Source of the DNA: Pocillopora damicornis
Taxonomy: Eukaryota
Reading direction: 5' to 3'
DNA length: 64,000 nt
Assembly (NCBI RefSeq): GCF_003704095.1
Contig: NW_020847208.1
Coordinates: 1-64,000, forward strand
In this document: one piece after another, positions 18,951-24,900 of the stretch
Layout: every line of letters starts with the position of its first letter
Position numbering within the stretch: position 1 is the first letter of the stretch
Program-made: the position numbers and the translations under genes
Notes under the pieces: generated by a model
The model's database searches: none
Seen by the model: only the letters and a program-made list of their open reading frames with translations
Told to the model about the DNA's origin: nothing

Positions 18951-21900
18951 TTATTTGTCATCCCAAAAATTCGTATACCCAATAGCAGCGAGGTACTTTT
19001 GTCCTCTAAACCCCTGCACAAATCTACTGATAAGTCTTATCAGCCGGCACTGCTCGAGCCTACAGAGAAAAAAAATGAACTTTGATTAGCATCTGAGGAG
19101 AAAGCCCGTTTCAGCTACGAACTTAGCCCCTTGACGGTCCTTGAACAAATGTGATAATTTGAAGAGTTCGAGTGAGGGGATACTTTACAGCCACGACGTT
19201 TAAAAAAAAACTGAAATGGTTTTCAGTTTTAAGTCAGGTTTAACTAAAAGATGCCTCTCGAGATCGAAGGAAAGGTAACCACCCCTCTCGTTTCTGTTGC
19301 AGCCTGTGCTGTGCCTAAGGATGTCATAGGTGAAAACTCGTATAAGGGTGCAGTCGAAAGACTGAGATAGTTTTTAAGTTTTTTTATAAGTGAGAGCAAG
19401 AGATGGAGACATCATGACATATATCAAGAAAAAATAACAAATACTATTATTCAAAAGGCTGTTCCTTTGGAATATATATATGGCTTATCGCCTTGCAGGC
19501 AGTTTACTTTGTCTAAAGGAGGTATGTACCTAAAGACACTGTGGCAGTTCGTCAGTTGGGGATCTTACAAGAGAAAATTGGTTTGATCAAATGAGTTGAT
19601 AACGTAAATTGGCCACTGAAAAGAGTTTCGTAAGCTGAGGTTTCGAGGGTTAGCCCTTGGTAAGAGCGATTAACGATAGTATATCGCTATGGATTCGCAA
19701 TTGAAATATAATGTTGAGCAGTAGAACGGAGGGCTCATCTTTACCTTTGCAACTCTCACGTACTACAGCCGGTAAGAGACTGGGCAGCTTTTTTAATTCA
19801 TTGACCTCGAAAAGCCTTTTGTTGTTGTTTGACAAAATTTGAAGGAAAACCACTTTCTCTACTGGATTGTTCGGCCATCCGACTCCAACAGCAAGTATCT
19901 TCACCCCTTTTTCCTTAAAGACCAAAAAACGTTAAAAAGCATAAGGAGAGTTTATTCCTGTATTCTCTGTCTATCTCACCTATCTCGTTTTTACACTATG
20001 TTACAGCTATTGACGGATGACTTATTTGAGTGTGAGAAACTTGGAACGAGAAAAGCAGTTTCTGCGAGAAAGGATCATGTCACCGCATCAAGATGAAGAA
20101 CTCAGATTCTCATGTCCCGTTTCACGGTTTGCGGTTAACACGCTTAATCATGAGTCGCCGAAAAACTTATAAGGGCCTTATACAAAGCTGATGTAGCTTT
20201 CTTGATTAATGAATCGTTCAAACCTCTAATTCTTTCACGTAAGGCTCGTAATCGTAGACCTTCGACTTATATCTTCCATCACCCAAAATAATCAACACTT
20301 TGTCTCTACCATCCTTGTTCACTTTCCAGGTGAATAAACCGTTGTTAGCCATCTTGAGAGCCAAGTCCAATCTTGATTTCCATTTCAGTTCCACGCCGTC
20401 GAGTTTCTGACCAATGTAAGAGAGCTTTTGCTTTCCTCCACGACTCAAATCAAAGGCCAATTCCAACTTCGCCTTTTCGTTGAAGGTAATAAGACCAAAC
20501 TGTGAAGCGCCTGACTCCAAATCAATGCTTCTAGCCAGATCCATGACAAACTCCTTCGTCTTTTTAAATTGCCACTTAGTGAAACTGAGGGACGCATCTA
20601 AAATAACTCCCATATTGACTGCGCAATGTAATGATGGAGACACTGCAATTGGGAATGTGTGAAATAACTTTTTAAAATAGTACTCAATAACACGTCTTAT
20701 AATAAAACAATAAAACTTATAAAATACTTCTCACTTAAAATTCATTGACGAATCGTGGACTAGAAAACGTAAGCATAACAGATAACTGGGGAAAATATCT
20801 TCTTCACGTTCAGTTGAGACTTACTTAGATTTTAAAAATAATGACGAAACATTTAAAAGAAAACGTCGATGAGAAACTTGTATAATATTTATTGACGCTT
20901 ACTGCTTGAAGTGGATTTGTCAGTTAATAACATTCAAAAGATTAGAAATGAGATAAACCAGAAAACCAAATAAGATTCGTATTTGTATGACAATTTTATC
21001 ATGAGTAAGAAAATCGAGACAATAGTTAAAATGAAAGGGATCCTATATCATACAAATTTCATACTCACTGCTTGGAGTAGTTTTTTTAGATGCTGAAAAT
21101 AGAAAAGGAAAAAACTAACAGATTAATTAACTAAATATGCGTATAATATCGATTTTTAACTTGATTAGATTTCAAGGTGTACATGTAAAACTATGAAACG
21201 AAAGACTGGAGGAAAATTGTCAACAAATTGTGAATTTTAAACTTACCTCTTGTGGTAGAGGGCTTGGATTTTGGAAATGAAACGAATATGATTAAGGTAA
21301 AGAAACACAACCTTAGGAAAGTTTATCACCGGCTTTTTGCAATGATGAAAGGACATTTAAAAAGAAAATGAACAGATTCGTGCCCTCACTGATTGATACA
21401 GATTTGCAGAAGGAGGACATAAATAAAAGGAAAAACGTAGTGACTAATGAATAGAAATTTATATCACGTGGATTCTTAAACTTTTTATATTTTAAATTGT
21501 AAATGTATAGCTATGAAATAAAAGACTGAAAACAATATGTCAACAATTTGTGGACTCTTACACTCACCACCCGTGGTAGGAGGCTTGGCTTCTGGAAGTG
21601 TAAAGGATACGAATAAGGTGAAATATCATAACCTCTGGAAAATTTATCACAGATTTGATAAAAATGACGAAAATAAAACATTTAAGAAGAAGACAAAGAC
21701 GAAAAGTATTAGGATATTCATTGCATGCTGATTGCTTTGAAGTAAATGAGTCATGTACTAAAATTGAAAATTTCTTAAATGGGATTAATAACAGAACCAT
21801 ATACAGCTCATGTTTATGTGATACTTTACTCAAATTCTAAAAGTAAAAAGTATGACAAAAAAAAGGAACAGAATCTACATCACGTAAATAATACACTTAC

Positions 21901-24900
21901 TCATTGCAGTGGACGTTTTAGGAGCTGAAAATTTAAAAAGGCAAAGTATTATGCGAATGATTAATAGAGATCTGTATCATGTGATATTGACTTAAGTCAT
22001 ATTCTTAGTTGTAAAGATGCAACTGTGAACCAACAGACTGGAAAAAATTCATGTGTGCTGATTTGATACTTACCACTTGTGGTGGATGTCTTGTATGCTA
22101 GAAATAAAAAGAATGTGATGAAAAGTTAATTACAGACATTGTAATATCAAGAAAAATATTTGAAAAAAAAAACAAATTTTNNNNNNNNNNNNNNNNNNNN
22201 NNNNNNNNNNNNNNNNNNNNNNNNNNNNNNNNNNNNNNNNNNNNNNNNNNNNNNNNNNNNNNNNNNNNNNNNNNNNNNNNNNNNNNNNNNNNNNNNNNNN
22301 NNNNNNNNNNNNNNNNNNNNNNNNNNNNNNNNNNNNNNNNNNNNNNNNNNNNNNNNNNNNNNNNNNNNNNNNNNNNNNNNNNNNNNNNNNNNNNNNNNNN
22401 NNNNNNNNNNNNNNNNNNNNNNNNNNNNNNNNNNNNNNNNNNNNNNNNNNNNNNNNNNNNNNNNNNNNNNNNNNNNNNNNNNNNNNNNNNNNNNNNNNNN
22501 NNNNNNNNNNNNNNNNNNNNNNNNNNNNNNNNNNNNNNNNNNNNNNNNNNNNNNNNNNNNNNNNNNNNNNNNNNNNNNNNNNNNNNNNNNNNNNNNNNNN
22601 NNNNNNNNNNNNNNNNNNNNNNNNNNNNNNNNNNNNNNNNNNNNNNNNNNNNNNNNNNNNNNNNNNNNNNNNNNNNNNNNNNNNNNNNNNNNNNNNNNNN
22701 NNNNNNNNNNNAAAAAAAAAAGGAGAAATATTCAGCATCCAGCCGGCAAAGTAAAAGCATTTACATTTCACTTACGTTCTGGTTTGATTGTGTAGACGTA
22801 CAGAGCATAATCTTCTCCAACACACATTTTGGAATTATTCCTTTGTGTACTGCACTCCATCAAACCACACTCATTTTCCTTAACCATTGTACATTTTTTA
22901 GATGCACCATGCTGATTATAGCTGTCACCTCCACCCCAGCACTCGCCATAATACTCGATACCGAAGTACTCGTTGTTTTTTCCTTCCGCAAGTTTTGCAC
23001 ATTCACAAGTGAACCTGCGAGATCAAACAAAAGGAGAAGTTTGCTATTCAAAGATAAAGACAATGGTGGTATTTACATTCCAAGTGACTCTTGGGCGTCT
23101 AAGGTTATCCTGTTTCACCTGGGAAGATTGTAACTCTCCCGGGATTAGATGTTTGTCGATTGCAAGTCGTCCAAGCGTTTGGTCAAGAGTTCGTAAGTAC
23201 AAATACACATGGATGGAAGGAGAAATTGTTAGAGTAAAATGTCTTGTCAAAGAACACAACACAACGACGCGGTCAGGGTTCAAACCTTTACTTTTCTATC
23301 TAGTATCCAACACCCATCTCATAGGGTCACTGCATTTCTGTCAGATAAATTAAAATGAATCTATCAAAGAAATGTTGACTCATTTTCATTTCACCATTTA
23401 CCTGTCAAGGAAGTTTGCCCAGTCGTTCCAGTTAAAGGGTTCTCCAAAGTAAGACTTTGAATTTGGATCTCTTGCCGTAAGCAATAGGTCCGGTAAAGCT
23501 CGAAGAGAAGGGTCTTTTCTATCCCGAAAACAACCAACCGGCCTGCGTTCCAGAGAGCATTTAGGCTGTTGCGACTGATAACAGCCTGGGTTATAAGCCG
23601 AAAGAAAGACAACGAATCAACGGTTAGAAAACTTATTTCTTTGGAAGATCACTTAACAAATGTATATATCCATGAATATTCAGGGTGTACAAAGAAATAC
23701 GTGAGAAAGTATTTGTTCTTTCACAAGGTCTGAATGTAATTTCTCCCTGTTTTCTACCATACATTTCTTGTTACATCAATTTTGAGAATTTGGCGTTAAA
23801 CGAAGTAGATCTCCTCGGTACAGATCAGAGATGTAAGGTGGTTTTAACAAACGGATTGTTACAGAGTTTCCACCTTGTGAAACTATCTACATACAGAAAC
23901 GTTTTTGTTAAGATAACTCGGTACCTATAATACTTGCGGCACGACAATAATTTACCTACCTTTTTGTAGTCTGTAAACGAACAAATCGAGAACTCCTCCA
24001 ACACATATCTTCCCTTGCCCTCGTTGTTCGTGGCATGACTCGAAAGCACAGTTATTGTTCTGGACCATGATACAGCTGTCAGACGAAACTTTTCGACCAT
24101 CCCTGGGGCTCGATCCGCCCCAACATTCTCCATGGAACTCGATACCAAAATAATCAAAGTTCATTTTTTCGGCCTTTTTTGCACATTCACAGACAAATCT
24201 ATGAGTAAAATATCGTAGTGGTTTAATATAGCTTTATTAAAAGATCAATTTTATTGAAAAGCTTGATAGAGGACCCAAAGTAAATCACGATTGACCTGAA
24301 TCATTTCATTGATCGTTGACCCTCACCGCTGGAGCGGAACGTTACTGACGCTTCGCTGATCTTAGCGAAAGTCATCACAACTAATCAAAGGCATATCTAA
24401 AGCAGTTACAACCAAATTACATTCCTGCTTTCAAATTTAGTTCTTTTTTTCACTTGAGATCTCATTGGCCCCTTGCAAGTGGTTCAGTTGAAGGACTCCA
24501 GGACTCAGTCGAAGAACTCCAACTGAATCGAGCATTCACGCGAAAAAAAATGAAAGAAAAAAGATTTATTGTAGTTACCTGTCGATAAAGTTAGCCCAGT
24601 CCCTCCAATTTATACTTTCTTTGAAGTAAACTTTCGATCTTGGATCTCTGGCTGTAAGAAGTAGTGTTAATAACGTCCTGTCTTCTGGGGGGTCTGCTAT
24701 GTCTGCAAAACAACCGACTGGCTCGTACTTCTTAGGGCACTGAGGCTGATTGGATTTCCAACAACCTGGTCCGATCACTGAAAAGAAAATAAAGAAGTTC
24801 GCATTTACTTGTTCGTGTTACATAGAAGAGCAAATTCAATCAAGATCCAAGTGTGCTTAGATAATGAAATCTCAGCAATAGCCATTTGAATTTTGTGTTA

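Follow-up and report, generated by a model that had tools for sequence, protein, structure and literature searches.

Within a stretch of 64,000 nucleotides (nt) from the coral Pocillopora damicornis (GCF_003704095.1, NW_020847208.1, positions 1 to 64,000; hereafter the window), the minus strand carries a gene with two WSC-like domains, a VWA domain and, between these parts, an array of 24-nt exons (Table 1). The gene product is predicted to be a secreted coral protein of the order WSC-WSC-spacer-VWA. A first-pass annotation, made from the letters alone, had described five such exons, here called units, and had proposed that alternative splicing tunes the length of the linker they encode. We find that the units belong to a two-exon module that has been duplicated together with its introns, and that two additional units, concealed by an assembly gap, are spliced in a row in RNA.

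The host gene

Exons placed by hand give an open frame of 555 residues, running from a signal-peptide-like N-terminus (hydrophobic, judged by eye from the translation of the first coding exon) through two WSC-like domains, the array and the VWA domain to a short last exon. Seven larger introns are confirmed by RNA contigs as CT..AC joints; the contigs stem from six RNA-type runs and one DNA-like run (X numbers), examined out of 24 listed. The second WSC domain is a tandem copy of the first (repeat families D2, D3 and D6). Pfam recognizes WSC (PF01822) at E 2e-4, with 22.0 and 14.7 bits against a gathering cut-off of 27.8, single exons representing half-domains, and VWA (PF00092) at E 1e-12, where 48.9 bits pass the cut-off of 23.8. 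A DxSxS motif and a later Asp, which we take to be the VWA motif, can be read from the translation. An AlphaFold model of the public 286-residue fragment (predicted local distance difference test score 86.4) matches Wsc1 (7pz2), Kremen1 (5fws) and glyoxal oxidase (9n3u) at Z 9.0-10.1, with a root-mean-square deviation of 3.0-3.7 Å over 89-99 residues. Among 48,161 chains, four reach Z >= 8, all of them WSC-containing, and the next unrelated row has Z 4.6; Foldseek on the same model gave E values of 8e-4 to 4e-3. As modelled, the two N-terminal domains adopt the WSC fold despite their sub-threshold Pfam scores. A sequence search of the PDB returned Wsc1 alone (E 0.014), and the ESM Atlas returned cnidarian clusters with WSC on 17-23% of their members. 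The placement of the array between WSC-like and VWA domains, as first annotated, is thereby borne out by fold matches and Pfam, respectively.

Public gene models divide the gene at the array: RMX58504.1 (286 residues, partial) holds the WSC half and XP_027056252.1 (192 residues) the VWA half, while the P. meandrina model CAH3121029.1 reads into an intron and then stops. No full-length protein with the spacer was found, the matches from the WSC-VWA gene being intron read-throughs or halves, in protein searches that gave 2 hits among 7 candidates for exon 5 against longer proteins, 1 among 550 and 6 among 34 for the VWA exon, and 173 with HMMER, 150 of them listed. One protein that clustered with the exon-5 fragment (P0226, 597 residues) was set aside as unrelated sequence. 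Two peculiarities of the 3' part were recorded on the side: X2 carries a 26-nt duplication at 19023 that spans the stop codon region, and a short high-copy repeat in an intron of the VWA part (19578-19629) reaches a depth of ~2000 in the RNA runs.

Table 1. Features of the WSC-VWA gene and its microexon array (window coordinates unless another sequence is named)
Feature	Position	Strand	Basis and remarks
5' untranslated exon, 39 nt	25493..25531	-	AG/GT scan; joint 25379-25493 in X3; upstream end approximate
First coding exon, ATG at 25372	25294..25379	-	Translation; joint 24777-25294 in X2 and X3
WSC-fold domain 1	23960..24777	-	Exons 24777-24579 and 24198-23960; RNA joints, Pfam, fold
WSC-fold domain 2	22776..23585	-	Exons 23585-23402 and 23014-22776; RNA joints, fold
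Hidden unit A0	within 22214..22711	-	A-type, TKPLATK; loose end of X2; would lie at ~22390 if module spacing holds
Hidden unit B0	22190..22213, approximate	-	B-type, PKISTEI; X6 and X2 (other individuals); GTGAGT donor just inside gap
Unit 1	22074..22097	-	A-type, YKTSTTS; AG/GT intact
Unit 2	21901..21924	-	B-type, PKTSTAM; AG/GT intact
Unit 3	21568..21591	-	A-type, AKPPTTG; AG/GT intact
Relic B-type unit	21390..21413	-	AG acceptor lacking, donor weak; pairs with units 2 and 5 in the module alignment
Unit 4	21247..21270	-	A-type, SKPSTTR; acceptor AA, likely dead
Unit 5	21069..21092	-	B-type, SKKTTPS; AG/GT intact
Relic unit, third type	20903..20926	-	17/24 nt as in unit 5; donor kept, no AG
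VWA domain	19745..20642	-	Exons 20642-20224 and 19913-19745; joint 19912-20223 in X2
Last coding exon with stop	19040..19059	-	Joint 19058-19744 in X2; C-terminus as in XP_027056252.1
Duplicated segment	19330..21350	-	Copy at G000:C1951:441195-443025; 84% identity, introns included
Single short S/T/P exons among seven scanned G000 regions	C1208:317033, C2633:227647, C1951:443052

An array of 24-nt exons

All five visible units were recovered at the expected coordinates and with the expected translations: 24 nt each, on the minus strand, symmetric in phase (1-1) and followed by GT(A/G)AGT donors. Positions, length, phase and donors of the first-pass annotation thus hold, and unit 4 calls for a correction: a pyrimidine tract and YAG precede four of the five units, AA stands before unit 4, and hence only four visible units are canonical exons in the assembly. 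In the live units, pyrimidines fill 16-19 of 20 positions of the tract and the donors match the consensus. A strict short-exon pattern (pyrimidine tract, YAG, 6-51 nt, GT(A/G)AGT) occurs at seven sites on both strands of the window, four of which are array units. In Markov simulations of the region, none of 5000 contained four such 24-nt units (maximum one), and the array is therefore not a product of chance. The translated frame has no stop with all, none or four of the units included. As had been proposed, the linker is rich in S, T, K and P: the four intact visible units form a low-complexity segment without Cys, in which S, T and P account for 19 of 33 residues and K for another six. In a genome-wide pattern search, the A-type pattern matched three times and the B-type pattern twice, always at the array or at the C1951 duplicate described below; reversed-pattern controls gave no match.

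How did the array arise? Its introns are mutually similar, with self-alignments of 69% identity over 309 nt (E 5e-40), 64% over 456 nt (E 9e-37) and 63% over 167 nt. The units fall into two types, A (units 1, 3 and 4, which have 15-18 of 24 nt in common and similar flanks) and B (units 2 and 5), and in a three-module alignment the A-to-B spacing is 173, 178 and 178 nt. A two-exon A+B module has been duplicated together with its introns. Growth by exon-intron tandem duplication, as first suggested from the intron likeness, is confirmed by the self-alignment and the module alignment; the A/B structure and three relic units had been overlooked. One relic (21413-21390) belongs to the module of unit 3, and the third-type relic at 20926-20903 has a more decayed counterpart near 21750. 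Intron indels vary among individuals (joints 21491-21558 and 21634-21736). Tandem Repeats Finder did not detect the array, and an ungapped repeat finder reported a single 91-nt pair within it.

Units hidden in the assembly gap

A run of N occupies 22181-22711, inside the array region, and had been suspected of concealing more units. Two were found there. An X2 contig of 659 nt, of depth 3.8 and classed as RNA by a guess of the tool, is spliced at three introns; its match to the genome stops exactly at 22776, and 50 letters beyond are unplaced. The 30 of them that are shown hold one 24-nt A-type unit (TKPLATK), distinct from the five visible ones and, compared by eye, alike unit 4 at 18 of 24 nt, followed by six letters of a B-type unit. 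This match identifies the letters as unit A0 and the start of a B-type unit rather than intron, exon 23014-22776 being spliced into the one and then the other. From the opposite side, an unspliced X6 contig extends 36 letters into the gap from 22180 and contains the last 21 nt of a B-type unit with a GTGAGT donor, overlapping the six letters of X2 by three. Together, the two contigs place A0 and B0 in the gap, spliced in this order, and bring the array to at least seven units. X19 crosses the gap with 532 letters (531 in the assembly).

A direct splice from 22776 to 20642, which would have bypassed every unit and spoken against the first-pass annotation, was not seen in the six RNA-type runs, where a single spliced contig crosses that donor. 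Likewise, these runs contain no unit-skipping joint, the one spliced contig that enters the array having a depth of 3.8. Missing RNA cover over the visible units was not counted as absence (contigs of depth 2-5).

Probable decay of unit 4

X1 (depth 2.3) and X19 (depth 5.6), which come from different studies and are the only examined runs with listed cover at unit 4, carry AG at its acceptor. Both lack 11 nt at 21237-21247, so that the last exon base and the entire donor are gone, and only weak GT sites remain downstream. Unit 4 looks disabled at its acceptor in the assembly and at its donor in a second haplotype. It would be lost in both, and the haplotypes show no difference in the number of live units; the gap has the same size in X19 (532 versus 531). 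In unit 1, X6 and X19 share two substitutions, one of which changes Y to H.

A partial duplicate and a sister exon

The VWA half of the gene has a copy at C1951. Window positions 21162-19330 correspond to C1951:441228-443025 and a further 33 nt extend the match to 21350; the upstream break lies within the array. In this copy, unit 4 is missing altogether, and unit 5 has 23 nt and a mutated donor. The gene at C1951 joins its signal exon directly to the VWA exon (P0003) and has three VWA domains, and its broken unit 5 is dispensable for the nine Logan proteins having that gene end. The duplicate ends 27 nt before a sister A-type exon of 24 nt (C1951:443052), which follows the first VWA domain and resembles unit 4 at 21 of 24 nt. 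Of the 16 members of the corresponding protein cluster, 15 are listed, three without cover of the junction; 11 of the remaining 12 include the sister exon (nine of nine Logan proteins and two of three NCBI models). These inclusion counts show routine splicing for an exon of the A type and suggest that such exons are used constitutively.

Two candidate signs of allelic loss of units 4 and 5 in X1 and X19, a joint 21162-21318 and a 1-nt loss at 21090, were rejected: they match the C1951 duplicate instead. The first VWA exon at C1951 (C1951:441720-442141, L025) contains an in-frame TAA in the assembly, at which translation continues in nine Logan proteins and in two models of P. verrucosa; it reflects either a null allele or an assembly error. 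Five of 43 listed VWA-exon proteins (P0171, P0189, P0190, P0209 and P0211) are mosaics of window and C1951 sequence, in both directions, from either gene conversion between the two loci or chimeric assembly.

Short linker exons in related genes

A metagenome contig (L041) has the same WSC exon at 54% identity, with the same intron phases, and then nine units: seven of 42 nt, one of 27 and one of 23, of which one lacks AG and one is out of frame. A tree of 18 WSC second-half exons, with one of 14 branches starred, does not show L041 as an orthologue. Contig L040 has one 42-nt unit before it ends. Microexon arrays were not found in seven other G000 regions with WSC and/or VWA matches, which hold just single short S/T/P exons. 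A single short Pro-rich tail is present both in the paralogue at C2811 and in the counterpart of that gene in Stylophora; an Oculina protein (XP_078361257.1) carries a P/S/T repeat where the spacer would be, and P0228 has an N-terminal stretch similar to such linker exons. Single 21-45-nt phase-1 Pro/Ser/Thr exons beside WSC or VWA exons were noted at C2811 ~187905 (L022), C1208:317033, C2633:227647, L040:621 and L043:1262. Judging from these sequences, short linker exons seem common in the WSC/VWA gene family.

Discussion

What sets the length of the spacer? We favour, at a probability of about 0.62, mainly constitutive splicing, with length changed by the birth and death of units in the genome. 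Six live units of the tandemly duplicated 24-nt phase-1 exons would encode a Ser/Thr/Pro/Lys spacer of ~48 residues. Units 1, 2, 3 and 5 would be included alongside the hidden ones, mostly constitutively, and the array would be joined to the VWA exon in one transcript. A duplication would then add eight residues, and a splice-site mutation would remove eight with the frame kept. Since every unit has 24 nt and is symmetric in phase 1, length moves in 8-residue steps without a frame break, and the spacer may drift or be tuned cheaply. Its composition suggests an O-glycosylated, extended segment that might set the distance between the WSC end (putatively glycan- or protein-binding) and the VWA end (adhesion-type). 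PMC3748352 describes VWA domains as a typical feature of adhesion proteins in the coral matrix; the term 'WSC' does not occur in its available text. Our literature search, with subscription journals and supplements outside its reach, found no description of WSC in coral skeletal proteomes or of a coral microexon spacer, and our results do not link the protein to skeleton, mucus or immunity.

Several observations weigh against mainly constitutive splicing, or at least against parts of it. A single spliced contig enters the array, with 30 of its 50 loose letters shown; its six B-type letters match the start of unit 2 except at one position, and X2 could, though less probably, represent A0 joined to unit 2 in a variant allele. 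Among the contigs of the examined runs, none joins the array to the VWA exon and none shows any of the five visible units in spliced form. One model, XP_066028582.1, lacks the sister exon, through either real skipping or an annotation miss. As to unit 4, the AA could be an assembly error, and the haplotype with AG and the deleted donor could belong to another species or to an unassembled copy; the genome search found no third copy of the array segment. Finally, contigs drop rare isoforms, and a ladder of splice forms could go unseen.

Such a ladder, in which any subset of units is used to give spacers of 0 to ~56 residues, possibly by tissue or stage, is what the first-pass annotation had in mind. 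It draws on the symmetry of all units, which keeps any subset in frame, on the one of 12 paralogue proteins without the sister exon, and on schistosome micro-exon genes (MEGs) and SmPoMuc, which, in the available parts of the respective papers, diversify through splicing (PMC4350168, PMC2576457). Given zero skipping joints in the six RNA-type runs, an informative contig with A0 and B0 in order, nine of nine Logan proteins with the sister exon, and strong pyrimidine tracts and consensus donors in the live units, we consider alternative splicing as the means of length tuning unlikely. That WSC and VWA parts are two genes, the former ending in a spacer tail and the latter separate or vestigial, would accommodate the separate public models, the missing contig bridge from the array to the VWA exon, and paralogues with WSC and a P/S/T tail but no VWA (C2811, P0228 and P0018). 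Yet the units contain no stop, every live unit has a donor, and the next phase-1 acceptor is that of the VWA exon, yielding the 555-residue frame; moreover, the VWA model lacks its own signal peptide and the WSC model is flagged as partial, all of which renders a split highly improbable.

Equally hard to sustain is the notion of a nearly neutral by-product, where any polar, flexible spacer suffices and unequal crossing-over and decay proceed with no selection on length. This predicts the same anatomy as constitutive splicing with unit birth and death, and the two differ only on whether length matters. Four of at least 11 recognizable units are dead or relics, unit 4 has been damaged in two different ways, intron indels vary among individuals, and units 1 and 5 carry residue-changing substitutions, all in keeping with neutrality. 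On the other hand, six units have kept their 24 nt, an open frame and an intact acceptor and donor, while identity among their introns has fallen to 63-69%, and a related gene (L041) has built a longer array with a different unit length.

A bolder extension, which we regard as doubtful, is that a stony-coral WSC subfamily has repeatedly and independently built microexon spacers (24-nt A+B here, 42 nt in L041) as a length dial for a bridging protein outside the cell, with alleles and perhaps also splicing setting the length. These repeats might in addition be places of breakage through which the VWA domain moves from gene to gene: the C1951 duplicate has its start within the array and its end 27 nt short of another A-type microexon. 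If true, a non-bilaterian animal would possess a microexon system under regulation or selection; the eMIC neural microexon switch is described as of bilaterian origin (10.1101/2021.02.24.432780), and microexons have been noted in sea-anemone SA8 genes (PMC10210398), as far as the accessible portions of these sources tell. More immediately, two 'uncharacterized' coral models appear to be halves of one WSC-WSC-spacer-VWA gene and call for annotation repair, and annotation pipelines may be splitting further coral extracellular genes at comparable hidden linkers. With its live units, relics and a unit broken at opposite ends in two haplotypes, the locus captures exon birth and death in progress, and offers a cheap test of regulated against merely tolerated microexon inclusion in a cnidarian.

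Comparison with known systems

In Wsc1, the WSC domain sits on an O-glycosylated Ser/Thr stalk. The coral protein shares with WSC proteins (Wsc1, Kremen1, glyoxal oxidase) the fold of its two N-terminal domains; unlike them, it belongs to a cnidarian WSC-like subfamily that falls below the Pfam cut-off, has no transmembrane segment, ends in a VWA domain and has a much shorter spacer.

The spacer principle itself is already known from IgG3 hinges, SmPoMuc and glycophorins, compared here on the available parts of the cited papers. The human IGHG3 hinge is encoded by short duplicated exons in a repeated genomic element, with alleles of 2-5 exons (PMC8674132). In both cases, a spacer between folded domains derives from short duplicated exons, and IGHG3 alleles differ in length by whole exons. 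There is no homology, however, and IGHG3 is a disulfide-linked antibody hinge that varies in 15-residue steps through copy-number alleles, whereas the coral has 8-residue steps, an A+B module and splice-site death. In SmPoMuc of Schistosoma mansoni, a 27-bp exon encoding a mucin-type repeat is tandemly duplicated with its flanking introns, and the repeats hinder assembly (PMC2576457). A short exon duplicated with flanking introns and a spacer-type repeat are common to both systems; yet SmPoMuc repeats are ~1 kb long and >94% identical, a gene holding as many as 20 of them, and they belong to a multigene family that undergoes trans-splicing, while the coral modules measure 320-500 nt, are 63-69% identical and lie in one gene between folded domains. 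Glycophorin B pseudoexon 3 is an in-frame exon silenced by an inactive splice site in a haplotype-dependent manner (PMC11073628), much as unit 4, but it is a single exon of a membrane protein and has been revived by gene conversion; in the coral, no revival was seen.

MEGs consist mostly of microexons in their coding region and generate isoforms by alternative splicing, and SmVAL-6 is named as a protein that combines a folded domain with a MEG-like part (PMC4350168, 10.1101/2023.06.21.545858). The likeness to MEGs drawn in the first-pass annotation is superficial. Short symmetric exons are shared, and the hydrophobic N-terminus of the coral protein, judged by eye, resembles the signal peptide of MEG products, but the six to seven coral units of 24 nt make up 8.5-9.8% of the coding sequence. 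No skipping was seen in the six RNA-type runs, in which one spliced contig enters the array. With microexons at ~9% of its coding sequence, the coral gene is not a schistosome MEG.

Neighbouring loci

The other genes recorded in the window, all on the minus strand, were recognized by eye unless stated otherwise. An intronless PEX16-like open frame (18000-16870) lies directly downstream of the WSC-VWA gene. Two near-identical monocarboxylate-transporter-like genes (13750-12130 and 7990-6505), apparently a recent tandem duplication, are separated by a degraded transposase-like stretch. At 31388-27380 lies a gene whose exons include PAN-like, EGF-like and fibrinogen-N-like ones and whose last exon contains cysteine; a broken partial copy of this last exon follows at ~27600-27380. 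Two Cu/Zn superoxide dismutase-like genes stand in tandem at ~48400-46460 and 44780-42330. Finally, a gene that, from its translation, is presumably MYCBP-like has a likely U12-type intron from 38928 to ~37943; the donor of this intron reads GTATCCTTT, and a branch-like CCTTAAT precedes its AG by ~10 nt.

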